From: Massalongia carnosa
Lineage: Eukaryota
Length of the DNA stretch: 64,000 bases
Assembly: GCA_965645245.1 (NCBI GenBank)
Contig: OZ287074.1
Span: 248,001 to 312,000, forward strand
Reading direction: 5' to 3'
Positions 1,201 through 47,591 of the stretch are shown piece after piece; within the stretch, counting starts at the first letter, position 1; every line of letters starts with the position of its first letter. The position numbers were made by a program, and so were the translations under genes. The notes beneath the pieces were generated by a model. That model did no database searches. It worked only from the letters and a program-made list of their open reading frames with translations, and was not told the DNA's origin.

Positions 1201-3508
1201 CAGTGAACCCTGGCTATAACGAATCGATGATTCCATGAAAAAAATTCGTTATAACCAGTTTTCGTTATAACCTTAATTTCTACGAAAACATCTCATTTTC
1301 TACCTAAAATAGCTGGTAATGGTCATCTGCTTTCTAGTATTGATTTCCCCATTTAGCATAACCTGCTCCGAAGCATTCAAACGTTGAATCAGATCGATGT
1401 CGCCATCTTCCTGTTGCTCATGAAATGTACGTAGTATTCTCAAAGCTTGAATAGCTTCAGAGTATTTCACTGTAGGTTTGACGATCTCATCTTCATCCGA
1501 TTCTTCAATTTGACCCTCGGCGTATGCATCCACAATAGTATCAAGAATGTCATCATCATCCTCAATGATTTCTTCCGCGGGATTGAGACATCGTTCAATA
1601 CTTATGACGTCTTGAATGCGATCATTCTTCTTCAACTGCTGCAATGTAGTGTTCATCTCTTTTACTAGTTGATTGTAGTCTTCCGTCTCTTGATCAACTG
1701 CCTTCGACCAACCCTTTTCTTTCGTCCAGCCCATTTTCTTCGCTTGCAATTGCGTAGTAGGTCCGAAATTTGCTGAGAATACCAAAGACTTAATCCAGCA
1801 GTTGACGATAGTAGCGGGTTTGACGTCATACTCCCAAGCAGTCATTGACTAACGAATAGCTTGCAAATATGCATGTTCTTAAAAGGATCTTTGTCCGCAT
1901 CATACTGATCACATAAAAAGGCTAGCTATTTTCGCTTGTAGTGAGCCTTAAACGTCTTGATGATGCCTTGATCCAATGGTTGACAGATGCTTGTAGCATT
2001 GGCAGGAAGAAATATCACTTTAACGTTTGATTCAGGATTTGATTCTGAATACTGACGATAGCCAGCAACATGAGCTGAAAATCCATCGACTAGCAAGACT
2101 ACTTTGCGATTTGTTTGACGACTAAACCATTGCAAATACTCTTGAAATAATACTCCCGTCATCCATGCCTTTCTATTGCTTCGCCATAGCATATTCAGGT
2201 TGCTAACGTTGATCCCCTCACGCGTAAAACAGCGAGGTGTTTTTGCCGTACCAATGAACAAAAGTGGAAGTTTATGAGTGCCCGTTGCATTAACGCAAAA
2301 ATTAACGGTTATTCTAGCTTTCTCAAGCTTCAATCCAGCAGATGAAGCTGTAGCCAACGTTCCATTCGGATTCATCTTCCAATACAAGGCAGCCTCATCC
2401 ATGTTGTATACATCGTCTTGATCGTACGGAGCCAACTTAATTCTCAAGTCCCTCAATTCTTCTTCCACTGTCTCCTTGTCAACTGATGCCGCTTCTCCAT
2501 GTCGAATACGAAAGGAGATGGAATGACGAGCTTTAAAAGCATCTAGCCAACCGTTAGAAAACTTGGGCATTTCTTCATGAGAGTATTGGGGAAGTCTTAT
2601 CCAGATTTTCTTTGCCATCTCCTTCAATAACTCTCCCGTCACAGTCGCCTGCTTTGTCTGCATTCGTTGTTGCCATTCGAAAAGAGCCGCTTCAAGATCC
2701 GGCCAAAAAGAAGCTTTCAATCTTTTGATATCAGGTTGATTCCGAAGGTGTATGACCGAATTCAGCTTCAAACCAGACTTGAAGAGCTTTGCCGAAAGGT
2801 CTTTTAACGAAATTATTCTGAATATACTGACGAAGCGCGTGTTTTTCTGCATCTGTGATAGGTCGACGACGTTTTTTGGAGGAAGAATTCATGATGAGTT
2901 GTTGGTTATTAAAAGTGTTGTAATGTGCAAAGTCACCCGGCTGATGCCTAGTAAAGTGTTCAGAGTCACATAGTACCGCATTGGGATTAGTGCGTTGGTA
3001 AGAACATTAGGCAACACATAACGACCTCGAGAAGCACCGCAAAACTTCTATGAACATTCCCATCGAGTCATAAATTGGATATGAGTCAATCACCAATCTT
3101 AGATTTCTAGGAAGCAGGAAGGTGAGTCATAGGGAGAACGGTTTTAGGCATGTTTTTCTATCTATATAAACACGGTCCTTAGATAGGTAGATAGAAAGAT
3201 CAATCGTTTCAAAAGTGAGCTTTTTACTATGCCAGCAGAGCTTCAATTACAATAAAAAGGATATGTTATCTATCGATAAGATGCGCAGCATGTAGTACTA
3301 CGTATCAAGAATTTTTATCAGCTAATCCTAAAAGGGTAATTGCCGAGGTCTAGTTATAGCGAATCACTAAGAAACTTTCTAAAATTGCTTACGAATTCGC
3401 AATAGGCCGACATTCGTTATTTTACATACAAGAATCGCTCATCCATGAAAAAAATTCGTTTTAAGCCGAATTCGTTGGAAAAAGGTTCGTTTTAACCAGG
3501 GTTCACTG
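1201..3508 (-). mobile_element. pogo/Tigger-like (CENP-B HTH + DDE_1) DNA transposon, 2308 bp
   Basis: 23-bp TIRs (CAGTGAACCCTGGCTATAACGAA at 1201; inverted copy 3486..3508, 2 mismatches); TA duplication at 1199-1200 and 3509-3510. Confidence 0.93.
1300..2892 (-). pseudogene. Degenerate pogo-family transposase
   Basis: MNSSSKKRRRPITDAEK N-terminus from 2892, then PDLEAALFEW (CENP-B HTH), YNMDEAALYW, VLLVDGFSAH and QPLDQGII. Frameshifts and TAG stops near 1926 and 1850. Confidence 0.85.
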
Positions 3509-5628
3509 TATAGAGCATCATACAAATGCTTTTTTGCATTTTTGCAATTGGGACCGACCAATTTTCGATTCAGGGTACGCTCGGAGTGAGTCCGACAAAG
3601 TAGATGAGTAACCTCCATCTCCCCGTCGATCAACCCTCGAAATGCAAGACTGACCCCTCGCTGTTCAGCTGCAGAATCGTCGGTGATAATGTATCGAAGT
3701 CTCCAAGCTCTAGGCCATCGCTTAATCTGACGAAGAAACTCTCCTATAATGTCACCGTCCTCGTTACTACTCAGCATGTGGGCTCCGGGAATCCAGCTTC
3801 CACATTCGTCACGAATCATCAATGTAAATAACTTCCATTTTAGCTGATTGGTGTTATGAGTACTGTCCATCAATGTCAGATGTCCACGTTTCATCAATAC
3901 TGATAACCGAGATCTTTTTGCAAATGCTATTGCATGTGATCTTTCTCTATCAATGAGACGAGTTATTTCAAGCTTTGCAGCTAGAACATCTTCACCCAAT
4001 GCCTGCAATGCATCAAAACAGCTATTCAATTGATTAATCCATGACTCCCTAGCTCCCTGAATTCGTGCATCAGGATTCTGCTTTTTAAAGCTTCTTCCAG
4101 CATTGTATACGGTTTGAAAGTTGAAATTCGACCCCCCGGCCTGGTTCAAAGCTTCAAGATTCCCTTCCCATCTAACGCCCTGCATGTTTCGATTGACGTC
4201 TCCCGGGGTATATCCTTTTGCCACCTCTTTACCAGCCGTCAGTCTGATGGCGGAGTTGATTTTGATATTGTCCACAACCTCCAAAATGTGATTATGTTGC
4301 AGCTGATTAACTGAGTCGTCAAGCTTCTTGTTGACGTGACGACTCAAAGTCACCGTCAACAATTCATTGATCTCATCAAATTGTTTGATCATAGCCAGCT
4401 TTATAGAGCAAGCATCAGTTAACCGCATTCGTTTAGCACGTCGTCCTGAACCTTGACTTTTAATGTCAGCATCTTGCTTCCAAAGTCTGCAAAACCAATA
4501 TGATTTTTGAGTTCTCTTCTTGGTAATAGGCTCCGTGTGATTATGCACCCAGATGTTGTCCATAAACGGCCAGTATGAAGCATAATTATCCGCAGTCCAA
4601 GTTATTGGTGCATCTAATGCAAAGACAAGCTGACGCATCGAGACCAGATGAGAAGGTAGAGCCAAGACAGTGGAAATAGGGGTCGAAGCGGAGCGAGAAG
4701 ATCCTCTGGCGACGGTGAGCTGACTATCCAGCTGACTATCTAGCTGACTGTCGACGTCGCTTTCGGGCTTGGTGGTATCTAAGTACGAAGACATCTTGAA
4801 TAGCCTCAATAAATGAGAGCAGCGAGGTATGAGAAAAGTGATAATAAGGGGTAACCAGGGGATGAGAATTACGGTTGGAAGACGCGACATTAATATTTAC
4901 GAGATTTGGTCATGTGCCAGCTTACTAATTGCTGCGGCAGCTAAATGGTATGGAAAATAGAAAACCTCTGAGTTTTACAGCCTCCCCCAGGGCTAAGCGA
5001 GTATGTATTCCAACAGCATCCTCGACAACCATCACTGCAACCATGATCCTTCGCTGCCAGATCAGGTACAAATCATCCTCAGCCCCCTCCTTCCTACGAC
5101 CTCCTACGCCTTCCTGTATAAATCGGACTTCTTGAGTTTGAATAGATCTTCTCGTCACACTCTCCAAAGATTTGATGCTACTCTATCAATACGCATACAA
5201 TAGACGCGACCTTGATGCGAGAAGATGGCGAACACGAAAATCTCTCTGTAGTTGGTTTGCTGCGTTGTCGAACTTAATCTTAGTAAGCTGACAAGGTGAA
5301 TGTAAGTCCTGAAGACTGAGAGAAGAGAAAAGGAGGGGGGGACAAAAAGATAACAACCAAAAAGGGTTGCAGGTCCTCGCCGTGCCGCACATATGTAAAT
5401 GAAATGATGACAGCATTTGCCACACAACAACACAATGAAGTTTGACGATTCTCCGCCCAAGTTTTGCAGCAGGTGGACGGTATTCTACAGGCGCCTGAAA
5501 GGCATTCAAAACCAACACTCCCTTTCTCTAGATCCAATGGAATGAACACAGCTCTTGATGATTAGAATCTTTATTACCTCCATCAAGCTACATTGACGCT
5601 GTTGTGACGAATCCTGTCGTTGATTCAA

Positions 5629-7086: not shown

Positions 7087-8009
7087 CATCAAGGTTACCT
7101 TACATCAGACATTGTATTGCTACAATGAAAGAAAGGATAAAATTTCTAACGTGTCAAGGGAAGGTTATTCCTTTCATTACAATTCCATCGAGTACAGGAG
7201 TGAAGAAGGGGAGCTTTGATGGCCGGGAATCCTGCTTCCCTGAGAATAAATTGAATAATGTACACAAAGTTCGTGTAAAAAGTGTCACAATTGCTTTGAT
7301 GTCTGAACCTCAATAAACTCCTTGCATTGCTATATATTCTCAGGCGATGGTCACAACACATCGCGTAAAGCAACAACGGAATGAAAGATTAAATCGACAT
7401 GAATCAGTTCGGTTTCCGTATCAAGCGACAGAATATCAGTTGACATCAAATTTTATCCAATACCTTGCAAGACTGTGTATCGGGCAGTCCTTGTCTATAC
7501 ATGCGGATACACATCTAGAATCTGAGCAGCAATTTTACATCAGTGCTAAACGCGGCTGCTAAATTACAGTGATGATGATAACGAAAGAAAATTTCCATTC
7601 CCAGGAAGTTATGTGATTGAATCTATAATTGTATGACTTAATGATTAAAAAGTTTCAGACAATTACATAAAGATTCGATTTTGTTTTGATCTGTTCAGTT
7701 TTAGAGCTAGTGCAAAAGAGAATAAACACGAGTCTTTTAACGATCGCGTTTGACGCTGATAAACGTTTCCGTTATTATGATAATGATAATGTATTCATAC
7801 TCCGATATGTCACCGGCAGGCCGGCCCATGCGGGCAAAGCTGTCTAAGTTATGTTACATGGAAAACCTTTTTCAGGTGTAAAAATCATATCCCTTGATAC
7901 CTGTCCGATGTGACAACGGATCGACGTCGGACAGGAGACGCAGAGCGAAAATATTGTGAGAACTGTGACGCCTTGTGAAATGGGAAGAAAAAGAAAAGTG
8001 AAACTACTG

Positions 8010-11000
8010 TTGATTATACAATAGTGTAGATGCCATTGAGAATTGGGCCAGTAGACCTGTTTTCATTAGTCAAGCAGTTAATATCTTTAGCATTTTTGAT
8101 GTTTCGGTTAGCTGTTGATAGTTGTTCGTGCCAGCGGCGCGAAACATCTGTTCTCTATTGTCAATAAGTCTACAGAACATGATTACGTGTTCTGGAGTTT
8201 GTCTGTGCCAGCCTCATGAGCAGGCCGGTGAGGTGACGGCGGGACCCGTCGCTGGTAGAGGAAGTCAGCTAGACCGATCTTACCGGTGCAGATCTGTGTT
8301 GTCAGGGCGCTTTCTGCCTTTTTTAGCAGCGTGTGTATTTTGAGTCGTTTTTTGCTCAGTGAGACTGATTGCGGTATGGAGGGTGGGTTCGGTGACACGA
8401 TTTTGATATGCGCTCCACGAGTCGTTCCAGACTTTCAGCTGTCGTGCTTTAATTGTCTGCATTTGTTTTTAACGAGCCAACGCTGCTACGGAGACTTCGC
8501 GGAGATGCGCTGGGGAGGGGTCGGGCCATGGTGGGTGTGCTTTGGGTGGTTGAACGATTTTTGCGTCGATCAGTAGGTTTTTGGCCCAGGTGTTCTTCAG
8601 CTCTCCCGGAGTGGATTTTTGAAGGCGTTTACCCTTCGATTGACCTCCGGCTCGGAGTCGATGTCTGGCCTGCGCCTGTAACGTGTCGAGGTGTACATCT
8701 ATGGGTGCTATGTATGTCTCTGCTTCAAGAACTGGAATGGGAGTGGCTTTAAAGGCACCGGTTATGATGCGAAGGCAGTTGTTCTGCATAACGGAGAGCT
8801 TACTCGTTGACGTTTTTGACTTTTTGACTTCTTTGGGCATGTGCCATACGGTTGACCCGTATGTCATGACCGGACGCACTACGGCGCTGTAAACTTGCCT
8901 TGCTTTGGTGAAGGTGGCACCCCAGGTCGATGTGGAGATTTTTGTCAATGCCATGGATTGTTCGACCATTTTCTTTTGAGTTTTGCGAACGTGCGGCCCC
9001 CATTTCAATTTGGTGTCAATTTGTAAGCCTAAGACTCTAATGTCCGTTTTAGGTTCAATTTCGGTGCTTTTGCAATGTTGATGAATGCAGCCATATTGAA
9101 TCTTTTGGGATTTCTGGACAAGTGAATGAGTTCGTACTTCGTCGGGGCGAATAGGGATCCGTGTCGAGAAGCCCACTTTTCGCATTGTCTGTGTGTTGAC
9201 TCCAGAGACTTGCAATTCTCTTCGGTGCTTTTTCCGTATGCCAAAATGTTGGCATCTTCTACAAATCCTATGACACTTGTGTTTGTGCCTGATCGCTCGC
9301 ATATTCCAATAGGTCTGCATTATAGAATAGATAAAGAATGAATGAGAAAGGGGAGCCCTGTGGTATGCCAGTTCTCACCGCGAATCGTCCGATCGCTTTT
9401 CGATTTATAGCTAGAGTTGTGCTACGATCATTTAAAAAGCTGTTTAATCAATCAGTAATTCATTTCGGGATTTTTCTTTTACGTAGATTGTGCGTTAGTC
9501 TTTGATGTGAAACTGTATCAAACGCGCCGGCGACGTCCATGCTTAAAAGTGTGGCTACTTTATCTTTTCCTTGTCCTCAAATCGTGTGAACCTGTTCGGT
9601 TAGTAACTTCAGAGCTGATTCTGTAGATCTGTCCTTTCTCGCTCCCATGTGTGTCGGGTAGGAGCCGATGTTTTTCCGCTAAATAAGTTATTTTTGATCC
9701 TATGATAGATTCCATTGCTTTGCTGAGCGTGTTGAGTAATGCAATTGATCGGTAAGCCTTCGGCGTGGTGTACTTTGCTTTTTCTATTTTTCTTAATATT
9801 ATCATGTTTGCCATTTTGAAGGCTCGGGGATGGTACGAAAGTGTAACGCACGCCTGAAACAGAGGTGTTAATAATTCAACAAGTTTTTCCGCGCATGTCT
9901 TGAGTACTCTATTAGATATGCCGTCAGGACCCGGTGCTTTATCGGGCTTGAGCCGATGCAGGGCCTTGGACACTTCTGACCTGGTGATAATCATTGGACA
10001 GTGCGGCGATGCTAGATAGAAGGATCCTTCTATATCGCTTAAGTCGGCCGGTGGTGGTGCGGGAAAGAAAATGCTTTTCAGCATTTCGGCTTTCTCATCG
10101 AACGTGTCTGCTGTTTGATTATTGAACTTCAAAGTCGGCATTTTGGGTACTGTGTGACTTTTGTCTTTGGCCCATTTCGCTAGCCGCCACAGAACCCTGA
10201 GGCGTTTCGGTAGCCTTACTGATCTCTTGACGAAAATTTGTCCTCTTTGCTTTTTGGATAATTTTCTGTTTCTTGTTATTAGATTGACCAGTCCGCTAGA
10301 TCTCGTGTGTCAGACCATATACGGCGTAATTTTCGTGTGGCTTTGGTGGCAATATTGCATTCTTCTGTCCAGAAAGGCTTAGCATATTCGCTAGGTTTCG
10401 CCCATGGGACGGCTGCATTGATGACATTTTATAGGAAGTTTTGAATCGATTCTGTGTATGTATCGATCTCGACAGGTGTGCGGGGAGACGCCGGTGAAGG
10501 TGTGTGGCGCTCGGCTTCCCTTAATTTTTCCAAATTCAGAAGTTTCCATGCCCTGCGTTTACTTTTTGGTTGCGACTCGCTACCGAGTAGGATGCGGGTT
10601 GATATCGGTACGTGATCGGACGATTGATTTAATTCTGGTCTGGTCATGCAGTGTTCAAGTCTTTCAACTAGATGTTCTGACATGAAAACTAGATCGATCG
10701 TGCTAAACGTGTTTCTTGCTTCCCATGTTACGGTGCCTTTCGGCAATGTTAGCGAGAGATTGAATTCATCGATGATTTCTAACAATTGATCAGCTGCAGC
10801 ATGTTGTGTAGGTCTTGAAGGACCGTTCCAAAATGGATGATGCAGATTGAAATCACCAAGCAGGATATGATGCACGCCTTCGGTTAGCATGCTCCGAGCG
10901 GTCGATAAAGTAGAAGGGCTATCAGTGGACGAATAGGAGGCAGGAGAGGGATTGTATACGTTGTGTATATGGATCACCTCCACTACGCCTTCGGTGCATG

Positions 11001-11298
11001 TTTCTATTTTTAGCGTGCACATGTCGGCCGAGGGAAATTCTACTTCCCAGCTGTCAGTGCCTATTGAATCGTTGATGTAGAAGCACACTCTGGTGTCGCC
11101 TCCTGGGCGGTATAGAAGGTGAAAGCCACTTTGATGTGAACTGAGCGATGTGGGGGCGGATGGGTTGCACCACGGTTCCTGTATTGCAATGATATCATAG
11201 TCCTGGGTGTTTGTGTCTGCTAAGAGGGGTATCATAGTACTCACTCTATCATTTCTGACATTATACTGCAATATCGAGAGGGATTTTGTGTCTCTCAT
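8010..11298 (-). pseudogene. LINE ORF2 (APE endonuclease + reverse transcriptase), fragmented
   Basis: ILQYNV, IIAIQEPW, LLGDFNLHH, STIDL and SDH (APE); KAPGPDGI, YRSIALLNTL and IRVLGLQID (RT); C-terminal RQTPEHVIMFC knuckle. Many stops and frameshifts; the lower bound is approximate. Confidence 0.88.
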
Positions 11299-11543
11299 AG
11301 GATTTCCATGGTTTCGACCACTGTGACTGGGGTGGCCTGGGTGCCTGTCGTTACTACGGATTCTGCGCGGGGTCTACCTAGCGCTGGTTTTGCTAAGGCT
11401 TTGATCATGTTTTCAGGATTCATAATGCCTATATTAGCCCAGGTTGATACTTGCTCTCCTCGGGGAGAGCCCGGTGATGAGTCGGCTGAGAGCCCCGCGT
11501 TGTGCATTTTTCTTTTCTTGCCGTTCACAATCTTCCACGTTGA

Positions 11544-12865
11544 AGACTTCGATAAGAGTCCTGGGAGTATACATTGACACTAGACTCGATTGGGCAGCGC
11601 ATTACAAGGAAATTCAGAAGAAAATGACGAGACAAACAATGGCACTGACCAAAATCGCAGCCTCAACCTGGGGGGCGACCCTCCTACGAGCCCGCCACGT
11701 GTACACAGCAGTGATACGCCCCGCCATGTCGCACGGCTCGATAGCATGGCACATGCCAGCCGAAGCAAGAAAGAAAGCCAAAGTCGAATCAAGAAGCAAA
11801 CTCGAAGTCATACAAAACAAGTGTTTACGAGTCATAGCCGGAGCGTACAAGGCTACCCCAATTGAAGTATTACAGGCAGAAACCCACATCCCTCCCTTAA
11901 CGCAACATCTAGACCGCTTACAAGCAAAAACGAGATCCAGAATCTCGAACAGCGAACAGGAAAAAATTATAAAGCAGGCGTGCAATAGAATTCAAGTGAA
12001 ACTCAGAGGTAAAAGAGGTCAATCGCGAGTCGCAGAGAAAACACCGGGAACTCGTAAACGAGAATGGGTAACAAAGATGACGAAAGACGCACCGAAAACA
12101 GTTAAACTGGATCAACCCTCTCCCCCTCCCTGGACAACGATCGACGAGGCACAGAAGAGACAACGCACAGCGCAAGTAACGACGCAGAACCAACGAGACG
12201 GGATAATAAAGAAGCACTTTGAGAATCAGTGGATCAACAAGTGGAAAGCATATCAAGCAAAACACACGTTATATCCCACGATCGCACAACAGGCGCCTAT
12301 ACACAGGAAAAGGCTTAACGCACACAAGTTACTAGACAAAGCGCAAAGTTCACTAGCAACACAGATAAGAACGGAAAAAATCGGACTGGCCAACTTTCTA
12401 TATCGGCGCAAGGTCCCAGGTGTGAACTCGGCGGCATGTCCCTGCGGAAGCCTCTTACAAACAGCCAAACATGTAATCATGTTCTGCAGACTGCACGAAC
12501 ACAGAACGCACATGCTACGAACGGCAGGCTCGTCAGACTACCGCAAGCTAATCACCGAACCCAAAGCTCTCAAAGTAGTAACCGCGTGGCTCATGCGCAC
12601 AGGTATTTTAACACAGTATTCCATTGCCACGCAACTGCTTGAACAGCAGCCGGGCAGTCTCTCTTCAGTTTGAAAAACAGGTATCGCAGATTTTCGAGAT
12701 ACAGGAATCAATCCGCGGGAGCGGCGAACCCCCGATGAAGCGGATACGCAGGAGTAGTTTTTCACCTTTGGGTTTTCTACTTATTACATAGCTTATATAG
12801 CATCTCCCGCATGGGCCGGCCTTCGGCCGGTGACACAACGGCGTAAGAATAATCAAATCAAATCA
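11544..12865 (+). mobile_element. 5'-truncated LINE of a second family (B), nested antisense in the host LINE ORF1
   Basis: 15-bp TSD AATCTTCCACGTTGA at 11529..11543 and 12866..12880; (AAATC)n tail. Uninterrupted RT-thumb/C-terminal frame to the stop at 12673 (IRVLGVYIDTRLDW...CPCGSLLQTAKHVIMFC). Confidence 0.93.
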
Positions 12866-13357: not shown

Positions 13358-14685
13358 CACGCGGGGGACAAAAAAAAAACTACACCAAAATTTAACCGGG
13401 TTCAACCCCCCACCAAAACACAAGCAATTTCCATACAATTTTGATGGGATAATCACCATTTCAACAACCAGTCATCCAATTCATTCAATCTATTCAATAA
13501 CCAGTCATTTTACCCTCACCATCCAAAACAGCTCTCAATCTATCTGGCATAGTAGACACCCGTTCATTGATAAATGCCTGGGAAACGTTCGCCCACCCCT
13601 CATAAATTAGCCCCTTGGTCGTATCATCATCCCAATGAGGATATTTTTTTAAATATTGCTTCGGGGCCTGCCAGCAATTTTCTATGGGGGCCAAATCAGG
13701 TGAACATGGACAGTTGAAATAGTGCTTCAGATCGTTGTTCTGCTTCCAAGTGCGTACAATGTTTGATTTGCCTGGTCCATGTCCAGAATCACCGTCTTCT
13801 TCTAAGACGAAATCGTGTTTTGCTTCAATCCAGGGCTTCACAATAGGCTCCAATATAGAGTCGATATAGACTCGTTGACTCATCTTTCCATTGGAGTTTC
13901 CAGGAACTCTGTAAAAGTAGATATCTGACTTGAAGTCATGACCTGCAGCAGCCCAACAGTGATGTCTCTTCTTGGCGGCCTCGTCTGGTTCATCTGCTTC
14001 TTGAATACAATCATGACAATAACGTTCACCTAATCTTCGTATGATGCGTAATTTGCCCTGAGGTCCCCATCCAAAGTGCACTTCGTCACTAAATCGAACT
14101 TGTTTCCAGTCTTCTGCATTTGGATATCTAGAAAGCATAGCATCTGACCACTTCATACGAAGCTTTCTTGTCTTCTCGTTCACCCATCCCTTTCTGCACG
14201 CAATGCATTTGTGATAATCCATGGTGCCCATGATTCGTTGAATGGTTTTGCCACTGCAGTCTAGGCCTACTTCGAAGCCCAATTGCTCCCATGTAAGAGC
14301 GCGCGCCTCCATACCTTCTTCTTCCAATAGCCGTTCCATTTCTCTAATCAATTTAGGCGTAACAATTTTGTGACGCGCACGAGCTTCAGAAACATCGGAA
14401 TTATTATGATGACGGCGTGATGAGGCTCCTTCACGCAGGTATGCATAGCCCCTCGTACGTTCCACATCAAATGTGCGAAAAACATCCTCTTTGTGATAAG
14501 AAATGCCTTGCTTTTCGCAAAATTCAACGGCTCCCTGAATTTTAGCTTTGGTAGGAGTCTCGATATGTTTAGAATTCATAATAATGATAATTATCCCATC
14601 AAAATCGTATGTAAATTGCTTGTGTTTTGGTGGGGAGTTGAGCCCGGTTAAATTTTGGTGTAGTTTTTTTTTTGTCCCCCGCGTG
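13358..14685 (-). mobile_element. Tc1/IS630-like DNA transposon, 1328 bp, ~100-bp TIRs
   Basis: TIRs 13358..13460 and 14583..14685 begin CACGCGGGGGACAAAA; flanked by the direct repeat CCAAG (13353..13357, 14686..14690). Confidence 0.93.
13494..14579 (-). CDS. Intact Tc1-like transposase (DD37E), 361 aa
   Basis: WKQVRFSDEVHF, LEEDGDSGHG and SPDLAPIENCW; 37 residues between the second D and the E; no stops. Confidence 0.92.
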   Translation of the reverse strand: MNSKHIETPTKAKIQGAVEFCEKQGISYHKEDVFRTFDVERTRGYAYLREGASSRRHHNNSDVSEARARHKIVTPKLIREMERLLEEEGMEARALTWEQLGFEVGLDCSGKTIQRIMGTMDYHKCIACRKGWVNEKTRKLRMKWSDAMLSRYPNAEDWKQVRFSDEVHFGWGPQGKLRIIRRLGERYCHDCIQEADEPDEAAKKRHHCWAAAGHDFKSDIYFYRVPGNSNGKMSQRVYIDSILEPIVKPWIEAKHDFVLEEDGDSGHGPGKSNIVRTWKQNNDLKHYFNCPCSPDLAPIENCWQAPKQYLKKYPHWDDDTTKGLIYEGWANVSQAFINERVSTMPDRLRAVLDGEGKMTGY

Positions 14686-15409
14686 CCAAGCTACTTTGAT
14701 GATCTTGAGGTCAGGATGCAGGCGTGCGTTGGCGGCCTGCAGGTACGCGATAGCAGTTGATTGATTGGCCACTTTGATGTTTTCCACCTTGATTCCATTT
14801 GCCCTTACGGTGAAGGTACGAGTATGCACCGCTGCGGAGGCGGCCATCATGCAAGTTCAGTCGGTCTTTTCCTGCAGGGTTTTCTTTGCCTTCAATGACT
14901 TCGTGTGAATCCTTATGTCGTCATTTAACAAGCGCGACACTCGTATTCCTTTCGCTTCATTTTGCAACGTTTCTACCAGCTCTTTGGTTGGCATCAGCTT
15001 TACTTTTTCTTTATCTGCATTCTTCGTTATGTGAACAGTGATTTCTCGCGCTTCCTTCGGTGTAGGTATTTTGTCCTTTGAAGTCGGTTGAGACTTGACA
15101 TTTTTGTTCATCACGACCTCGCCCCGTGGCGGCAGCGGCGTAGCTTTGAGAAGTTGTATCCTTCCGTTATATGCGTGTCAGTGTTTGTTGAATAGATTGT
15201 AGAGTGTCATTGAGGATGTTGGGCGCCTTTGCAACTTCGTCGTCGATCCACTCCTCGAATATTCAATGTTTCCGTTATTATATTATTATATTTAATTCTT
15301 TTTTCAATAATCTCGTTTCGTACAATATAAGTTTTTGATACTACGTCTCTAGTCATTAGTATGTAGTCACTGAGTATGACTGAAAAACAAGGTACCGCCA
15401 ATGAGGTTC

Positions 15410-29231: not shown

Positions 29232-30079
29232 GGCCTCTCGCGGGAATTATGACGGTCAATCGGCTTAATGGCGCAAAAAATCCAGAAAAGCTGCTGCTTG
29301 TGTGGTGAAGTTGCCATGATGAGAGTCAAGCCGGAAAGGAGGCACAGCCTCTAAGCTCATCACCAACAGTCTTTAGAAGATATTAAAGGATCCGATACCC
29401 TATCCACGCGACGTATGCCACCTATGCAACCGGCGGCGAATGGGAGCTGACCCTTATGGGGACTAGATAGGGGCTAAGCCAAAGGGGGATTAACTTATGC
29501 TGGCTGAAACGTAGATCTTATCTAGTCATATCTCTAGTGAACGCTTCTTTACTCTGTTGGCTGATAGATTATCCAACATCGCAAGGCGAACCGAGCCAAG
29601 CGATATACAACTAGATGCATGGACTCAAATATATAAACTCCTAGAGCGCTAAATATTTTCACTCCCGTCTTGACGACTTCTTTATCGTCTTGAATCATTA
29701 ATTTAGATTCTTATTGCTTTTCAAATACTTTCTCTGACATTTATATTAGTTCAAATTATGTACATGATTATACACAAACAGAATTATTGAAAGCGCTGTT
29801 GGGGAAAAATTAAAGAATTTCGTAAGACTTCAAAAGAAACGCGACTCAGTCGATCGATAGGAAAATATCACGACGAGATGTTCATCTTTCTTCATCAATC
29901 TAGATATGTTTACTCCATTCTCCCGGAAAACCCGTTTCATTGGATGACTATATCTTGCAGTCGTCAGCTGCAACGGTGTCTTTCCATCCAAGTTTCGTGC
30001 CTGACTGTTTGCTCCATATTTGAGTAGTAATTGCACCACGGCTCGATAATTATTTCGGGCGGCAGTATGCAATGCCGTG

Positions 30080-30296
30080 ATCGGTCCTCCTCCTTCTACA
30101 CCATCGGTCCTCCTCCTTCTACACCATCGGTCCTCCTCCTTCTACACCATCGGTCCTCCTCCTTCTACACCATCGGTCCTCCTCCTTCTACACCATCGGT
30201 CCTCCTCCTTCTACACCATCGGTCCTCCTCCTTCTACACCATCGGTCCTCCTCCTTCTACACCATCGGTCCTCCCCCTTCTACACCATCGGTCCTC
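30080..30296. repeat. 23-bp tandem repeat ATCGGTCCTCCTCCTTCTACACC, 9 full copies plus a partial copy
   Basis: Unit starts at 30080, 30103, 30126 ... 30287. Confidence 0.97.
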
Positions 30297-30734
30297 ACCA
30301 CGGAGACGCCAAAGGCCTCACCGTGGGGCGACCGTCAAACATAGATTTGCTCCCATCTCTTCGCATCAAAACAATGCTAATTTAACGCGTTCACACGCGT
30401 CGCAGACGTACGTACGGAAGAGGATTCGAAGGCCAACCGCCGGAGGGTCGCATGCGCGCGTCCCTGCACCATGCTTCTAAGGGTTCAAGTCCCTTTATGC
30501 AGTCATCAGCTGGAAGAAGATGTGGACAAAAGGAGCCGCATCACCCCCCACCCGGGCACAGTCGACACGTGTTCTAGCTCCTGAGAGTTCAAGTCTCCCC
30601 ATGCAGTCATCAGCTGGAATCAACAGAACGCGGACAGGCACCGGGGCGAAGCCACCTCAAGAAAACTCCATCACGGAGCGGAATAACAATATCTCATTTA
30701 ACAGGCCCGGCCTGTTAAATAAAATCGAGGAAAA

Positions 30735-30850
30735 CACAGAGTCACAGAACACATAGTCATAAATCACACAGTCACAAAGCACACAGTTACAAAGCACAGT
30801 CACAAAGCACGCAATCACAAAGCACACAGTCATAAAGCACACAGTCACAG
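30735..30850. repeat. Degenerate ~15-bp tandem repeat (CACAGTCACAAAGCA), about 8 copies
   Basis: Directly visible in the sequence. Confidence 0.85.
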
Positions 30851-31990
30851 ATCAATAACATGTCCCTGTGAAGGGGGTTCTGCGGGGGCTCGTTAAGGCA
30901 GATCTGCACCCCGTTAATATCGGAGTACATATTTTTAGAGGTTCAAGTCCTTTCTAGCAGTCATCAGCTGAAAATAATGCATTTTGACAAGGGCATGGTG
31001 TGGATTTGACACGGGTAGACCTCGATGGATCACAAAACGAATGAAAAGAGTTCAGCGGAACTTAGTTAATATTGTTCTCGAAGATCTCGTTAATAAGATT
31101 TTCATAGACCTCGTTAACAACGTTCGATCATACTCTTAAAGGTTCAAGTCCTTTCATGCAGTCATCGGCTCAGAGCTAGAGACGTATGACACGGGTCAGC
31201 TATGTCTATCACACGGGTCTCCTTCGTCTACAACACGGAGCCCTCCGGCTGAAAGAAATAAAACATATATACACATAGTGTGGGGTCACACCCTGCACGA
31301 TACAAGGGATTTGGGTTATGAAAACCATCCGACTGATGGCTACCGTGAGCAACACGGCCCGAACCGGGGTCGCACCGGGGATGGTGGAGGCAACCTAGTC
31401 ATCAAATAGGACACCTTTGGGACAAGAAGAGGGCAATATACGAGGAACCCGTTAATTGATAACAGTCTAGGCCCTGAGCTAATAGACGAATTTCAAACGA
31501 GCACCCCTCCGAGTTGTCCTCGACTCGTTTTGGTTAGTAGGGACGGAAAATCGGTACTATACTGCTTGGTCAGGAGCATAGTGGCCGAAATCCCCGCGAG
31601 ACATGGTCGGTTCATAAACGGGAGACCTTTATGAATAACGCGAAGTGGGCGTAACAAACCCATGAGGCGTGGTATGCAATGGCGGCCACCGTACGGAAAC
31701 CCTCTGCATAGCCCGAGAGGACAGTATGCGCATGTCGGTGTATATAGAGCAGGGAATGTCTATCTCGCTCGTAACGAGACCCGTCGGTTCGCCGGCGCTG
31801 GGGCTACGGCTAGACTCGCCCTTGATATATGCTTGAGGAGTAAACTGGGTTTGGCCTAGGCGAAAGGGACGTCGTTCACCCCAATCGTAGAATTCATCAA
31901 TAGTCTTGGGCCGTAAAACGCACCAGTGAGATGAACAAAAACTCGGATAGAGACTTCACGAAGGAGATGTCAGCTCTATTTTATCATTCT

Positions 31991-34211
31991 TAGCCACACT
32001 TTTAAGCATGGACGTCGCCGGCGCCTTTGATACAGTTTTGTCACGGTTCAACCACATCCACCCAAGGCCAATCAAAGGAAAGTACGGCATCTGCCGGCGC
32101 ACTAACCGCTTCCGTTACTCAACCCTTTTAGCAATCATAGGGGCAATGAACGGAGGTCTGAAAGGACTGAAATGGACGCATCGGAACGACCTTCTAAAGC
32201 AAACACAAATGGGGACAAAGAGCAGAAAGACTGTTTGACCAAACTGTTCACTTATTGATGAAGACACAAGCAGCTGGATCGGGCCAAGCGATTATCTATA
32301 TAGATTCCTAGAGAGGGCACCCTTTGCTTGTTTCCTTTCTGCATCTTTGATATTTTCTAGTGCATAGCTTCCCAGTAGGTAGTCAATTCCACATCCTGGT
32401 TGAACCGTCACACGTTTCACATCAAAGACTAACGCACAATCTACGTAAAGAAAAATCCCGAAATGGATTACTGATTGGTTAAACAGCTTTTTAAATGATC
32501 GTAGCACAACTCTAGCTATAAATCGAAAAGCGACCGGATGATTCGCGGTGAGAACTGGCATACCACAGGGCTCCACTCTCTCATCCATCCTTTATCTATT
32601 CTATAATGCAGACCTATTGGAAATATGTGAGCGACCAGGCACAAACACAAGTGCCATAGGATTTGTAGACGATGCCAACATTTTGGCATACGGAAAAAGC
32701 ACCGAAGAGAATTACAAGACTCTGGAGTCAATACACAGACAATGCGAAAAGTGGGCTTCCCGACACGGATCTCTATTCGCTCCGACGAAGTACGAACTCA
32801 TTCACTTGTCTAGAAATCCCAAAAGATTCAATATGGCTGCATCTATCAACATTGCAAGCACCGAAATTGAACCAAAAACGGACATTAGAGTCTTAGGCTT
32901 GCAAATTGACACCAAATTGAAATGGGAACCGCACGTTCGCAAAACGCAAAAGAAAATGGTTAAACAATCCATGGCATTGACAAAAATCTCCACATCGACT
33001 TGGGGTGCCACCTTCACCAAAGCAAGGCAAGTTTACAGCGCCGTAGTGCGTCCGGTCATGACATACGGGTCAACCGTATGGCACATGCCCAAAGAAGTCA
33101 AAAAGTCAAAAACGTCAACGAGCAAGCTCTCCGTTATGCAAAACAACTGCCTTCGCATCATAGCCGGTGCCTTTAAAGCCACTCCCATTCCAGTTCTTGA
33201 AGCAGAGACATACATAGCACCCATAGATGTACACCTCGACACCCTACAGGCGCAGGCCAGACATCGACTCCGAGCCGGAGGTCAATCAAAGGTCATTTCT
33301 TCCGCATGCAGCAAAATAGTTAACAAACTCCGAGGCAAGGCAGGTCGCAAACGCCTTCAAAAACCACTCCGGGAGAGCTGAAGCACACCTGGGCCAAAAA
33401 CCTACTGATCGACGCAAAAATCGTTCAACCACCCAAAGCACACCCACCATAGTCCGACCCCTCCCCAGCGCATCTCCGCGAAGTCTCCGTAGCACCGTTG
33501 GCTCGTCAAAAACAAATGCAGACAATTAAAGCACGACAGCTGAAAGTCTGGAACGACTCGTGGAGCGCATATCAAAATCGCGTCACCGAACCTTCCATAG
33601 CCCAATCAGTCCCACTGAGCAAAAAACGACTGAAAATACACACGCTGCTAAAAAAGGCAGAAAGCGCCCTGACAACACAGATCTGCACCGGTAAGATCGG
33701 TCTAGCTGACTTCCTCTACCAGCGACGGGTCCCCGCCGTCACCTCACCGGCCTGCTCATGTGGCTGGCACAGACAAACTCCAGAACACGTAATTATGTTC
33801 TGTAGACTTATTGACAATAAATAACAGATATTTCGCGCCGCTGGCACGAACAACTATCAACAGCTGACCGAAACATCAAAAACTCTAAAGATATTAACTA
33901 CTTGGCTAATGAAAACAGGTCTACTGACCCAATTCTCACTGGCATCTACACTATTGTACAATTAACAGTAGCTTCACTTCTCTTTTCCTTCTTATCTCAC
34001 AAGGCGTCACAGTTCTCACATGATTTTCGCTCTGCGTCTCCTGTCCGACGTCGACCCGGTGTCACATCGGACAGGTATCAAGGGATATGGTTTTTACACC
34101 TGAAAAAGGTTTTCCATGTAACATAACTTAGATAGCTTTGCCCGCATGGGCCGGCCTACGGCCGGTGACATATCGGAGTATGAATACATCGTCATCATTA
34201 TCATCATCATC
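31991..34211 (+). mobile_element. LINE family A 3' portion (RT to 3' tail), degenerate
   Basis: LLSMDVAGAFD, GIPQGSTLS, GFVDDA, CSCGWHRQTPEHVIMFC; highly similar to the reverse complement of 7779..9557. Confidence 0.92.
32039..32412. mobile_element. Probable solo LTR (374 bp) inserted in the LINE RT
   Basis: TG...CA ends with terminal inverted repeat TGTCACGGTTCAACCA / TGGTTGAACCGTCACA; 5-bp TSD AGTTT/CGTTT. The other LINE copy reads GATACAGTTTCACATC uninterrupted. Confidence 0.8.
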
Positions 34212-34239
34212 ATGCAATGCCGTCTCTCGATCTCGATCT

Positions 34240-36080
34240 TTCGCGTGCACATCAACCCCTTTTTCTAATAACAGCTATACTATTTGTCCCGATCCTCTCT
34301 TGGCTGAAAGGAAAAGCGCGTCATTTCCAAGGTCATCTTTTGCTTTGCTGTCTGCCCCATTTTCTAGTAACAGCTTCGTTATGGTTTCGTATCCGTATCT
34401 GGCTGCACATAGAAGTGGTGTTTTTCCTCCACGACCTCGAGTTTCTATATCTGCCCCTTTTTCTAATAACAGCTGTACTATTTGTCGCGAGCTACCCCTG
34501 GCTGAAAGGAAAAGCGCGTCATTTCCATCGTCATCTTTTGCTTTGATGTCTGCCCCCTTTTCTAGTAACAGCTTCACCGTGGGTTCGTCTATGAGTTTGA
34601 CTGCAAGAAGAAGTGGTGTTATTCCTCTGTAACCTCGAGTTTCTATGTCTGCCCCTTTTTCTAGTAACAGCTGTACTTTTTCTGCCACTTTTTCTGCCAC
34701 TTTTTGTCTCGATCGTGTCTTGATTGAAAAAGAAAGCGCTTCTTCTCCACAGTTATCTTTTGCTTTGATGTCTGCCCCCTTTTCTAGTAACAGCTTCACC
34801 GTGGGTTCGTCTCCGAGATAGGCTGCAATAAGAAGTGGTGTTCTTCCTTCGGGACCTCGAGTTTCTATGTCTGCCCCTTTTTCTAATAATAGCTGTACTA
34901 TTTGTCCCGATCTTCTCCCGGCTGAAAGAAAAAGCGCGTCATTTCCATCGTCATCTTTTGCTTTGATGTCTGCCCCCTTTCCTAGTAACAGCTTCACCAT
35001 GGGTTCGTCTCCGTAACAGGCTGCATATAGAAGTGGTGTTTTTCCTTTGTGACCTCGAGTTTCTATGTCTACCCCTTTTTCTAATAACAGCTGTACTATT
35101 TGTCCCGATCCTCTCATGACTGAAAGAAAAAGCGCGTCTTTTCCATCGTCATCTTTTGCTTTGATGTCTGCCCCCTTTTCTAGTAACAGCTTAATCATGG
35201 TTTCGTCTCCGTGATTGGCTACATATAGAAGTGGTGTTTTTCCTCCGCGACCTCGAGTTTCTATGTCTGCCCCTTTTTCTAATAACAGCTGTATTATTTG
35301 TCGCGATCTACTCCAGGTTGAAAGGCAAAGCGCGTCATTTCCAGCGTCATCTTTTGCTTTGATGTCTGCCCCCTTTTCTAGTAACAGCTTCACCGTGGGT
35401 TCGTCTCCGAGATAGGCTGCAATAAGAAGTGGTGTTCTTCCTTCGGGACCTCGAGTTTCTATGTCTGCCCCTTTTTCTAATAATAGCTGTACTATTTGTC
35501 CCGATCTTCTCCCGGCTGAAAGAAAAAGCGCGTCATTTCCATCGTCATCTTTTGCTTTGATGTCTGCCCCCTTTTCTAGTAACAGCTTCATCATAGTTTC
35601 GTCTCCGTAATTGGCTGCATATAGAAGTGGTGTTTTTCCTCCGTGACCTCGAGTTTCTATGTCTGCCCCTTTTTCTAATAACAGCTGTACTATTTGTCCC
35701 GATCCTCTCCTGACTGAAAAGAAAAGCGCGTCATTTCCATCGTGATCTTTTGCTTTGATGTCTGCCCCCTTTTCTAGTAACAGCTTCATCATGATTTCGT
35801 CTCCGTATCTGGCTGCAAGTAGAAGTGGTGTTTTTCCTCCGTGACCTCGAGTTTCTATGTCTGCCCCTTTTTCTAATAACAGCTGTATTATTTGTCGCGA
35901 TCTACTCCAGGTTGAAAGGCAAAGCGCGTCATTTCCAGCGTCATCTTTTGCTTTGATGTCTGCCCCCTTTTCTAGTAACAGCTTCATCATGGTTCGGTCT
36001 CCGTAATTGGCTGCATATAGAAGTGGTGTTTTTCCTCCGCGACCTCGAGTTTCTATGTCTGCCCCTTTTTCTAATAACAG
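34240..36080 (-). repeat. 198-bp (two-ankyrin) coding tandem repeat, 9 units
   Basis: Near-identical DNA units; a block at about 34801..34980 recurs at +594 bp. Confidence 0.93.
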
Positions 36081-36986
36081 CTGCACGATGGGCGTGTGGC
36101 CATGTTTTACAGCATAATGCAACGCCAAGTTTCCATCGCTATCAACGGACATCGCGTTGACCCCCGAATCAAGACATAACCGTACCAGGTCTTCATATCC
36201 CTTCATTGAGGCCAGATGCAGTATTGTTTTTGCATCTTCAGATTTTGTTGCAACGTCAGCCCCCTGTTCTAACAACAGCCTCACCATTAAGGTGTTTCCT
36301 TTTTCTGCCGCTATTAGCAACTGGTTTTGTCCCATAGAGTTTTCATGCTGTTTTAATGACTCCCGGAACAACAACGTTTGAGTTTCATCTTGCTTTAGTT
36401 GTTTTTCATCTGCATTTCGCATATCGTGCGAAGCGCACATATGTTTTTGCAAATTATCCTTTCGCCAGGTCCGGAATTTACAGCTGGGCCATTTGCAATA
36501 GAATCTTGACTTGATGACTGTGTGACTAACTTTGTGACGATTAAGATCGCTGCGGAGTGCAAAGCCTCGACTGCACTCATCGCACTTGTGTGGCTTCGTG
36601 TGTGTTTTGCGATGGCGCCTGCGACAAGACAGGTCAATGTAATGATTATATGATAGCAGGTGGAGATATACGTATAATCCCCGCGCCTTGTATATTTCTT
36701 AGAACAGAATTCACATGTAATTAGTCCTCTCACTTGGGAGGACTGGCTATTCATATCCGCATTTACGCCTCTGAAACAAGAGAGTGGTATTTCCGTAGGA
36801 CTGAGTGTGGAATAACTTTCAAATCATAAAATGGAAGATGATAAAAAAGCGAAGATAACTAGCTATCTTCTTTGTCTCAAGTAACTATTTTATATTTCGA
36901 GGTCACCTTGTACAAAAATTCGTCCAGCTAGAGTGTTGGGCAGTCTTAATGCCCTTTCATCCCAGCCTTGACGGGCAAGTGGGTGC

Positions 36987-41901: not shown

Positions 41902-44808
41902 TCACATCATACACCCGCCCGCCTTCGAACTGCCTACCTCCCCGCCCCCAAGTCTAACTCTACGTTTTCCACCGCCGATTAGGTCCGTCAACCCCCAGGT
42001 CTCGACTGCCCATTCGTACCAGACCTTGCGATTGTCGGTGCAGCGCACCATGGTAGCTGTGAGTTCGGCGTGATCAGGGATATAAAGCGGGGTCTGGTTT
42101 TCCTCGGCGGGGATTGTTAGCGGGTTATATTTGGACAAATAAACTCGGATGTTGATTGGAGTAAGGAGATAAGGAACGAGCACTTGAAGAACACGAAGTG
42201 TGAGGGAGAGTTTATATCATCTCTGTAAATGAAAAATAGGATTAGGGAGAAGGGTAGAGCTGTCAAAACTAAATCATGAAATATAACATGCCGGACAAAG
42301 ATGTAGCGGGCAGTTTATTAGAAAGGATCCTCACCTTGAGCGGAAAGAAGATTGGAAACCAGCTCATCATCCCAGGGCTCTTGGCCTCCATGGTAAGCGG
42401 ATTCGTGCTCAACTCGACGCCGGGATACAACACAGCCTCAAAGTATCCAGCTAGACCATGACACACACCTCGATCGCGGGTACGAAACTGGAGGCGAGCA
42501 TGCCTTGTGTTATGCACGTTCAAGCTAGACGCGGGAATGGTGGCCGAAGGTCCATGGCTAAAAGTCCAGGCAGGGAAGATGAACGGGATGGGGGGTGGGT
42601 CGAGGTCTTTCGGAGCCCAGCAGCTAGTGGAGAGAAAGTCAATGGCATGAAGCATGACAACGTAAGGCGTGTTAGGAGCAGTTGGGTCGTTGATAGCACG
42701 AAGGGCGATATCGGCATGAAGCTTAGGGGCGGCAATGGGTGTCAAAAAGGCGGTGTATGAAGTAGGAATGGAAATTCCATGGGTAGTATTCAAAAGTGGG
42801 AGGATGCCGTCGAGACACTCTGGGGAAAGCTCGTTGTCACCAAAGGAGCCAAGTAGCTCCGAGATGAGAATATCGATGGGGGTGTAGACCGGAGACAAAG
42901 GATTCATTGGCGTCGAGGAGGAAGACATTCCCATTGGGTCATGGTACGTTTCTTCGGCGCCATATTGGTCCTCCGAACCTTGTTGAGGATCGCTGATGGC
43001 TGCGGAAGGTTGAGCGACGGAGTCACGCCGAGGACCTTTCCAAGACCGCATATCTGACTGAACGAGATTCACCCGGTTACTCCATTGTTCTTCGTTGTGC
43101 CGCTGCAAAAGGACAAAAGCATTCGGATTCTTCTCCACCGCCCACAGCTCAATCTCAACACCAACGGCCTCGCTAGCTTTAAGAGCCCTTGTCACCAACG
43201 GCCCACGACCGGCTCCTACCACAGCGACTACAACTCGGCCACTAGATCCTGAAGCGGGCTTGTCTTGCTCGACCCAGTCCTTGAGTGCTTTGGCAATGGC
43301 CTTTTCGTATAGTTCATACTTGATCGGATCCTTCTCAAAGACTTCATAGGTAATACTTTCGAGGTTATCCGTCAAGGGCTGCAAAGGAGCTTGGAGATAA
43401 TCCTGATAGCCAGCGCCAAATCGTTCTAAGATTGTTCTTGGTGGCTGTTTTTTCTGAAGATATCGGATATTGCTTAGGTGGGGTGTGGGGTCGGACTTCC
43501 ACCTCTTGCTGTTTTTATGTTCGGTTGGAGCGGTGGCGGTGTTGACGGGAAACTGCTCAGTTTCATATGCCGCGCTCGGACTCATGAATCCATCAGCTCT
43601 TGGGATTATTGCATTAGGGTCGTCGAGCCCTGGAATAGGACCAACATCACAAAGCAAAATCCAAGGAGGATTTCGGATCCGCATGTACTTGCTGATAAGA
43701 TCACGGTGAGGTTTAGAAAGAATTGGCATGGAGTGGGTGTTCCTGTTAAAGGTACGAGAATCGAAACAGAGAATTCGCAGAGGTTCTGAGTGCCATCTTG
43801 CCTGAATGCTGAGGGTCGGAAGTTGTCTGGGAAGTGATAGAGCTAGTCCAGACGTTAGCAGAACTCTAAGCCAAACCTGAAGATAGAAATCAAAGAAATT
43901 GTTAGGGATATACCTCAAGACGATCCAAAAGCTATATCATTGAAAACTAAACCTCACTGGCTCTCAAGACGGAACGAAAAGGGGGCACGGAAGATTGCCA
44001 GCAGAAGTTCAACAAGAAAGTATTGATGCTTTTCCTTACCTACGAATAGCCTAGAGTTATATTTACATACAGTCCTGATGATGTTCCAAGCATCCCAGGT
44101 TCCAAATTCATCCATTTTGTTCTTTTTGACGCCCTCTGACGTGCCGATGTACTCCTCTCGCGCACGGTACGCCAGACTATCCTCTACATCATCCTTTTCG
44201 AACTCCCCGTTATCTATTATCGACAGCTTGATCTCGATTTGAAGATAGTTCGATGCTCCTAGCGCTTCCTGAATTGCCAAGGCATATTGCATTATGCCTT
44301 CGCCATGTAATTGATTGTAGTGTAATTTCGGGCCAGGTATAATGACATTTCCGAACCCGCAGAAAGCGGCATAAGCTATCTCCAAGTCCAACACTTGACG
44401 AGAGAGGCTGTATATAAGAGGGTCTGGGGAGCAAAGATCAATCCAAGGACTGACAATGCCTAGGAGTTGAGATATAGCGTCGCCTGGACTCAAAGGAGTG
44501 TCCGTAGACGATAAGGAAGAGATGATAGGTGTAGGAAGTTGTAACTGAGCTTGTGTGTTCAGCTTGTCGAGATGATTCGCGTGGAGAAGGAGGACTCGAC
44601 TGTGGAAACTTGATGTAGTGATGGGAGTGGTCAGCATATCATACTATAAGCAATGTTAGCTAGGTGAGATGACTGATTCTTCTTGACCAACGTTGCAGTC
44701 CTGTGCCTGACGAAGGACCTGACTCGTCACAGGCAAGGGGCGTTTGCTTTCATGTTGGCCCACATAGAAAGTGGACGGAAGGTCCTCGACAGTAGATGGA
44801 GATTCCAT
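41902..44808 (-). CDS. skb1: Protein arginine N-methyltransferase 5 (Skb1/Hsl7)
   Basis: Exons 44692..44808, 44040..44643, 42335..43842 and 41902..42093. Motifs YQDYLQAPLQPL, VVGAGRGPLV, DILISELLGSFGDNELSPECLD and SWFPIFFP. Confidence 0.95.

Positions 44809-45155: not shown

Positions 45156-47591
<2,436 letters not shown>

Follow-up and report, generated by a model that had tools for sequence, protein, structure and literature searches.

A probable MINE-type chimera of a structured non-coding RNA and a truncated LINE in a lichen-type fungus

A 4.1-kb insert at 30079-34211 of a 64-kb stretch of Massalongia carnosa DNA (contig OZ287074.1, positions 248,001 to 312,000; hereafter the window, whose numbering is used throughout) is probably the product of a single retrotransposition of the MINE type, in which the reverse transcriptase (RT) of a long interspersed nuclear element (LINE) switched templates from its own RNA to a second, non-coding RNA. 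MINE elements, which join the non-coding WEIRD RNA to a 5'-truncated MGL LINE, were described in Magnaporthe grisea/oryzae (Gogvadze et al. 2007, PMC2104539). In the window the 5' partner is a non-coding module (30079-31995, plus strand) and the 3' partner a 5'-truncated LINE that runs through its 3' untranslated region (UTR) and tail (31991-34211, plus strand). The two overlap in the five bases TAGCC at 31991-31995. Template switching is the best explanation because a single target-site duplication (TSD) surrounds a truncated LINE and a module with an exact end, the joint shows overlap, and relatives enter the LINE at varied points and join several LINE subfamilies. The first-pass annotation of this DNA had proposed such a MINE-like fusion of a non-coding RNA or non-autonomous element with a LINE, and the single TSD, the fixed module end and the varied LINE entry bear it out.

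A composite insertion in an ankyrin-repeat gene

On either side of the insert stands the same 12-mer, ATGCAATGCCGT, at 30067-30078 and at 34212-34223. The window has no third exact copy, so the earlier claim of one TSD around the whole element stands; the four near matches elsewhere in the window have two mismatches each, and none lies in the interrupted gene. Neither half has a TSD of its own: a comparison of the left flank with the sequence that follows the module, and of the module end with the right flank, turns up no common word of 6 nt or longer. In minus-strand orientation the right flank closes with ...VDVHAKDRDRETALH and the left flank opens with TALHTAARNNYRAVVQLLL; in translation the right flank ends ...RETALH, and the host frames join across the insert. 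Removal of the insert and one repeat thus restores one ankyrin unit, of which the 12 duplicated bases form the codons T-A-L-H. The host gene (minus strand, 34224-36698, with its 3' part at 29830-30066) encodes C2H2 zinc fingers and ankyrin repeats that match Pfam Ank families. An in-frame TAG at 34275-34277 indicates that it is now a pseudogene. After the zinc fingers come over 20 ankyrin repeats, which form tandem units of 99/198 bp.

For the LINE part the window itself offers a reference, a longer copy of this LINE at 7774-11560 (minus strand), which has both endonuclease (Exo_endo_phos in the open reading frame, ORF, at 10429-11373) and RT. The insert matches it at 92.0% identity over 1802 nt (32414-34207 against 9513-7774) and at 97.9% identity over the first stretch (31991-32038 against 9557-9510). 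The truncated LINE therefore enters at about nt 2004 of the longer copy, within the RT domain, and continues to the 3' UTR and its own tail. A remnant of the RT domain lies at 32548-32907 (Pfam RVT_1, residues 3-122 of ORF 32542-33381, E 6.7e-08), and the tail at 34187-34211 is a (CAT)n microsatellite, which the tandem repeat scan reads as (CAT)9 at 34187-34213. The tail of the longer copy is ATT/ATC-rich. From its domain order, the LINE would be a member of the Tad1-like clade.

The first-pass annotation had read all of 31991-34211 as LINE; identity, RVT_1 match and tail uphold this for all but 32039-32412, a nested insert that it missed. This 374-bp stretch resembles a miniature inverted-repeat transposable element (MITE), with 16-nt terminal inverted repeats (TGTCACGGTTCAACCA) and GTTT on either side. 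It is missing from the longer LINE copy, and a contig from a public sequencing run joins 32036 to 32417, as expected of an empty site. The MITE-like sequence is high-copy in one such run (X4). In the run labelled lichen metagenome the summed depth of its bins is several times that of the module, and one contig carries a copy inside another module copy (joint 30376/32039).

Copies, relatives and their junctions

Five studies contributed the seven public runs in which parts of the module occur; one run is labelled lichen metagenome. Four runs were compared over 29700-34300, among them X1 with 7987 contigs at 80-100% likeness. In X1 the contig identical to the left flank has a depth of 804, against 126,000-495,000 for the summed module bins; a summed bin depth is no copy number. 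Many diverged copies of the module clearly exist, and in the run of the source organism it behaves as a high-copy dispersed repeat. At dozens of module positions the window copy differs from nearly all others, mostly by transitions.

These runs also fix the inner border, through contigs of two other organisms. An X6 contig of 8164 nt carries 30284-31995 and then departs from the window sequence; X5 contigs stop matching at 31995 as well, with a continuation unlike that in X6. Neither continuation has a match in the window, the 5' half of the longer LINE included, or in the metagenome loci described below. Contigs that hold only the LINE continue upstream of 31991 into ordinary LINE sequence, and the LINE reference reads ...aaagTAGCCACAC across the joint. 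Contigs that leave at 31995 and LINE contigs that run upstream of 31991 place the module's own 3' end at 31995 and the start of the LINE at 31991, so that the five bases TAGCC are common to both. In one X6 contig, again from another organism, a module copy follows the 3' end of a LINE of the window's second family at a distance of about 550 nt (the match corresponds to 12756-12785 of the window).

Relatives were collected as 50 metagenome loci by a hairpin-motif scan of contigs, and compared by BLAST and with a hidden Markov model (HMM) of the conserved module core. The core is matched in 33 of the 50 (34 of 51 sources with the window), and 25 loci and the window reach the last HMM positions. 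Some of the 17 loci that lack a core match have only hairpin units or are chance matches. The core-bearing loci form several families, 65-85% alike, from several contig series. The module had been called an orphan; it is instead a high-copy repeat, one of an RNA family that is widely distributed and conserved in structure.

LINE-like coding sequence on the same strand begins 1-270 nt after the module end in 21 of the 25 sources that reach the last HMM positions and have downstream sequence. The expectation that copies end in LINE sequence is borne out for these 21 sources and fails for the other four: L001 and L041 (one sequence), L010, and L021, which has 184 nt downstream only. Junctions are variable, as was also expected, and TSDs around composites were found at L002/L044 (TAGTAGACTTTA, 12 bp) and L036 (AGCCTATAC, at least 9 bp), with a weaker one of 8 bp at L028 (TAGGAAGC). 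The point of entry into the LINE changes with the locus, and the LINE pieces begin in ORF1, the endonuclease, the RT, the C-terminal region or the 3' end: nt 256-274, 1668, 2119, 2292, 2373, 2388, 2609, 2735 and about 3180, with at least 14 distinct points among the metagenome relatives. At L037 the module is joined inside the zinc knuckles of ORF1; at L018 the junction lies further upstream, in ORF1-like coding sequence before a whole endonuclease and RT, and at L008 it follows ORF1, just upstream of the endonuclease. Entry is inside the RT at L019, L048, L032, L050, L013, L020 and L003, and in the C-terminal region at L028, L030, L002 and L038.

The JAABU family (family J) allows the closest comparison, as its copies are 91-97% alike and their pairwise similarity stops at one position. 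Their LINE parts join at nt 1, 2721, 3740 or 3766 of one LINE, or belong to another subfamily. The modules begin at a common start, GCCTCGCGG..., or are 5'-truncated. The modules of L028 and L030 are 98.1% identical and have different LINE partners; L036 and L002 have a common junction at different loci and with different 5' ends. The family-J module tree is nearly star-like and mostly unresolved, with one of eight inner branches well supported. JAABU modules (L002, L003, L018, L019, L028, L036, L039, L040 and L044) also have 183-bp repeats in two to three copies, each with one hairpin unit, and part of their core occurs twice: positions 30-191 are repeated about 1 kb before the main core (at 7378-7567 in L036, for example). 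The window module has no such second core copy.

Other relatives vary near the module end. Two soil-type copies, L021 (about 1209-1280) and L037 (about 380-449), have some 70 nt beyond the usual end, which finish in a second ..ATCCTTGGC before the zinc-knuckle sequence of LINE ORF1. Shortened modules, with core positions 8-321 or 260-477 only, are joined to LINE at L011 (8063-8398) and L014 (8044-8301), so the canonical module end is not used at every junction.

In every family the module ends ..TT(A/G)GC, often with one more C. Seven distinct junctions can be compared with a longer LINE copy, in which the template is TAGC|C at the window junction and GAGC|C, TAGC|C, CAGC|G, AAG|A, AAGC|T and TAG|T at the others; LINE and module overlap by 1-5 nt at all seven.

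Anatomy and predicted structure of the module

In the window the module opens with a 23-bp tandem array (30080-30296, 9.4 copies of ATCGGTCCTCCTCCTTCTACACC; Tandem Repeats Finder score 427, 99% matches). Four hairpin units follow, at 30470-30515, 30574-30619, 30928-30973 and 31129-31174, all on the plus strand. The first is a T-arm-like stem-loop, GGG-TTCAAGT-CCC plus GCAGTCATCAGCTG; all four were found by motif and stem scan, and the stems of the unit covary. The 46-nt motif has four matches in the module against 0.05 expected. Between the second and third units lie a palindrome with 17-nt arms, 88% complementary (30691-30725), and a 15-bp array of 8.1 copies of AAAGCACACAGTCAC (30731-30849), and after the fourth a 22-bp unit is repeated 2.5 times (31185-31238), both arrays found by Tandem Repeats Finder. 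A conserved block at 31270-31430 has 71-75% identity to nine loci (L004, L010, L013, L017, L021, L024, L026, L032 and L037) and 67% to L050, inside a longer match. The last part is the structured core of about 480 nt (31503-31994; HMM positions 3-477, nhmmer E 1e-111). No second copy resembling 30079-31990 occurs in the window.

The earlier description of the module as non-coding and highly organised is confirmed by the arrays, the palindrome and the four motif copies, and by the absence of Pfam families from all five module ORFs tested. The Rfam scan of the window region gave a single chance-level match, to a Streptococcus small RNA, at 24.8 bits against a gathering score of 50. Rfam matched none of six relatives nor the L036 module, with no hit to tRNA, 5S or 7SL, and ARAGORN found no tRNA gene. 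No known transposon UTR or RNA was matched in Pfam, Rfam or the literature searched. A coding reading of the core was ruled out by flat column entropy over codon positions (0.665, 0.605 and 0.675) and by at least two stops in all six frames of all 12 aligned sequences. One window frame (31140-31859) has two stops only, and the block at 31270-31430 yields similar peptides in L050. The hairpin units contain CUGAUGA on their minus strand; a hammerhead was considered and rejected, since by eye the helices are not arranged as one would require and Rfam is silent. Inspection by eye only saw no telomerase-RNA template of the CCCTAA type in the module.

The core alignment comprises 12 sequences, window 31500-31995 together with copies from 11 loci in five families. 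In the RNAalifold prediction the core folds into 17 helices, of which several are long-range, with 101 pairs in all; 48 of these have changed on both sides. In an independent count over the 12 cores, 95.2% of cells pair; sliding the partners by 1-3 columns lowers this to 35-48% and leaves 7-17 double-change pairs. None of 500 shuffles matched the observed values on four of five measures, and 13 of 500 did so for further pair types. The window copy retains 91 of the 101 consensus pairs, and the long single-stranded joining stretches are nearly invariant. Together, these results indicate that the core is a structured RNA whose predicted secondary structure is under selection.

The hairpin unit, analysed over 58 distinct instances, has an inner and an outer helix of 5 bp each, with pair types that alternate in both. 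Its heptaloop, TTCAAGT, is invariant, and the 3' bulge GCAGTCATCAGCTG nearly so. The heptaloop may resemble a tRNA T-loop or B-box in form. In a rigid-register test the outer helix was no better than shuffled partners (0.511 against 0.505); after MAFFT alignment its five pairs are 86-98% paired, again with alternating types. A T5 run at 30933-30937, inside the module, would argue against transcription by RNA polymerase III (Pol III).

Origin of the module and known counterparts

How might the insert have formed? A Tad-like LINE, with its endonuclease and RT, would have nicked the ankyrin gene and begun synthesis at the tail of its own RNA. The RT would then have worked along some 1.85 kb of LINE RNA as far as ...GUAGCC|ACAC, inside the RT-coding region, where the nascent cDNA may have shifted to the 3' end (...UCUUAGCC) of a module RNA with TAGCC as the overlap. 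Copying towards the 5' end of the module, followed by integration, would leave the 12-bp target duplication, and the MITE-like element and point mutations would have been added later. We infer the order of copying, a free module RNA, its promoter and any role of its structure. Termination, processing or core-directed self-cleavage could produce the exact 3' end, or the fold could position an internal landing site.

Several observations weigh against this account. No free-standing module locus, the kind of source that the first-pass annotation had envisaged, occurs among the 33 loci with a core match; L001/L041 was considered as a source locus and rejected, because its module is truncated on the 5' side and keeps only about 477 nt before the core. 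Variable junctions are shown in relatives and, in the source lineage, only hinted at by two contigs from other organisms. None of the listed runs with module sequence is recorded as RNA, and they are silent on expression. If source transcripts ran on into the LINE, the exact module 3' end would be left unexplained. The MINE authors report no microhomology at junctions (PMC2104539). Finally, the LINE reads AG at all seven referenced junctions, where the module has GG in five, and CTAAC lies 30-49 nt upstream in three of the seven; AG and CTAAC together look like a splice acceptor, for which overlap alone would be no explanation.

Could splicing, then, be the real source of the junction? The module would be the first exon (5' UTR) of a LINE transcript, and the composites retrotransposed spliced RNAs with a ..TTRG| donor and cryptic acceptors in the LINE. 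Spliced copies of L1 (SpIREs) are described in human, and module ends in AG or GG are what exons often have. However, a C follows TTRG in about 14 of about 17 distinct junctions, as read from the junction strings, and CC follows TTAG in all three window-lineage copies (window, X5 and X6), so the unit ends ..TTRGC(C) and the LINE-side dinucleotide is then not AG. It thus extends one or two C past the would-be donor; GT never follows the module, and an 'unspliced' continuation is never common to two distinct junctions. The pyrimidine fraction upstream of the AG is 0.15-0.65, and three CTRAY in seven are near the chance expectation of about 1.6. Splicing is improbable on this showing. About as improbable is that the module is the LINE family's own 5' UTR or promoter, with the window element internally deleted or 5'-switched. 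It does precede a whole endonuclease and RT ORF2 at two loci (L008/L025 and L018), and tandem repeats are frequent in LINE 5' UTRs. Exchange of 5' ends among LINEs is on record in Nicotiana (bioRxiv 10.1101/2022.11.04.512097). Against this, all families break at the very same nucleotide on the left and at varying ones on the right, a pattern not expected of random deletions; one module joins two LINE subfamilies; and the three longest composites (L037, L018 and L008, from metagenome contigs only) join at three different LINE points and show no colinear run from module to ORF1. The least credible reading makes the pair two unrelated adjacent insertions, or a site-specific LINE beside a repeated target, the module. 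The window is dense in transposons (two LINE families, Tc1-type, Tc5-type and Mutator-like, MULE), and nesting is thus common. Yet one exact 12-bp TSD surrounds the pair and none either half, the same abutment recurs in 21 of 25 sources, and the JAABU copies have nothing in common past the LINE tail, where a repeated target would resume; in the window it is the host TSD that follows the tail.

The nature of the module RNA is a separate question. Comparison across relatives supports a family of non-coding RNAs of about 2 kb, widespread in ascomycete fungi, with an exact 3' terminus. Its predicted traits are variable 5' arrays, two to four T-arm-like hairpin units and the conserved multi-helix core of about 480 nt. 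Is it a cellular housekeeping RNA, whose fused copies are dead-end pseudogenes, or a selfish one that rides as the 5' passenger of LINE chimeras? The chimera mechanism is the same under both. A housekeeping RNA would fit the strong conservation of core structure across divergent families and the nearly star-like family-J tree, as from one master source, and the WEIRD authors took that view of their RNA (PMC2104539). The architecture, however, varies by lineage, in the number of hairpin units (two to four), in the 5' arrays and in the partial core duplication of family J only; the copy number appears high; no solo gene-like locus was found among the 33 core-bearing loci; and the common junction of L036 and L002, at different loci and with different 5' ends, fits re-mobilised composites. 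A housekeeping role is accordingly possible and the less likely of the two. Because of this architectural plasticity, the copy number, the lack of a solo locus and the one junction at two loci, a selfish RNA is judged more likely, and each new chimera would then be a new source of module RNA. A bolder version, which we offer tentatively, is that the module stands for a class of mobile RNA, about 2 kb long, that has yet to be described. With neither an RT nor a LINE-like 3' end of its own, it would spread solely because LINE RT that leaves its template can land on the exact terminus ..UURGC[C]; its fold would recruit the LINE machinery, cleave the 3' end free of read-through transcripts, or both, and WEIRD would be a member.

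The closest known counterpart is MINE (PMC2104539). In both systems the 5' part is a copy of a non-coding RNA in the orientation of the LINE, the LINE is truncated at many points (leaving 230-5461 nt in MINE), a single TSD of 10-20 bp flanks the whole, no solo copy of the 5' partner was found, and insertion into genes occurs. The LINE-side junction motif is also alike: the window junction, GTAGCC|ACAC, fits the MINE consensus GCC*A/U. The differences lie in the module, which is about 1.9 kb against 1.1 kb for WEIRD and has tandem arrays and hairpin repeats; in its relatives in many fungal metagenome contigs, whereas WEIRD was reported to have none in 2007; in the overlap of 1-5 nt at the module end, where the MINE authors found no microhomology; and in a copy number that appears much higher than the 31-33 MINEs. 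WEIRD primers found no match in the module, although two 20-nt primers say little.

Other systems resemble the insert in part. Mammalian L1 forms bipartite chimeras in which U6, U3, 5S or 7SL RNA is fused to 5'-truncated L1, Alu or mRNA copies. There too the RT jumps from one template to the 3' terminus of another RNA, a single TSD encloses the product and the 5' partner is joined through its own 3' terminus, but those partners are short, known nuclear RNAs with cellular genes, whereas the module is long, absent from Rfam and seen only fused. U6-L1-type template-switch chimeras in mammals are treated in PMC13174262. Short interspersed nuclear elements (SINEs) such as Mg-SINE are likewise non-coding, depend on LINE enzymes and have a LINE-derived 3' end. 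Unlike these, the module has no tRNA, 5S or 7SL head of the Pol III type and is not short, at about 2 kb (1.9 kb in the window), and its LINE part is of no fixed length and acquired anew in each event. The 5' end switching of RTE elements in Nicotiana similarly places exchangeable 5' modules on conserved LINE bodies; that exchange is described as replacing the UTRs of full-length autonomous LINEs (bioRxiv 10.1101/2022.11.04.512097), whereas here one RNA sits on bodies truncated at arbitrary internal points. The literature searched, outside which most subscription journals lie, describes neither this RNA family nor any MINE-like element of lichen fungi; within it WEIRD is mentioned in the 2007 description (PMC2104539) and a 2014 paper only.

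In the 2007 account WEIRD had no known function, source gene or relatives (PMC2104539). If the insert is what it appears to be, MINE is no longer a curiosity of a single species, since the same kind of chimera is present in a lichen-type fungus. The 5' partner here belongs to a widespread RNA family with a predicted structure under selection and a 3' end exact to the nucleotide, and the question of why one RNA fuses to LINEs repeatedly becomes testable. It is also a problem of annotation, as standard protein- or Rfam-based annotation leaves this high-copy repeat unexplained.

The rest of the window is fungal and rich in transposons, with two LINE families and transposase ORFs of Tc1, Tc5 and MULE type. 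The longer LINE copy (minus strand, with frameshifts) lies head to head with a 5'-truncated LINE of the second family (plus strand, ORF 11438-12673) in the region 7774-12860, and the last 80 nt or so of the second family's 3' end is 81% like that of the first. Transposase ORFs, all on the minus strand, lie at 1926-2888, 3439-4896 and 13494-14690; the types in the window are Tc5/pogo (DDE_1 and HTH_Tnp_Tc5), MULE and Tc1/mariner (DDE_3 and HTH_Tnp_Tc3_2). Housekeeping genes stand beside this transposon-dense stretch, PRMT5 at 42269-43936 and a DEAH helicase at 45531-47453. The best named relatives of the PRMT5 ORF are lichen-forming Lecanoromycetes, Pseudocyphellaria aurata at 73%, followed by Alectoria, Xylographa and Gyalolechia.

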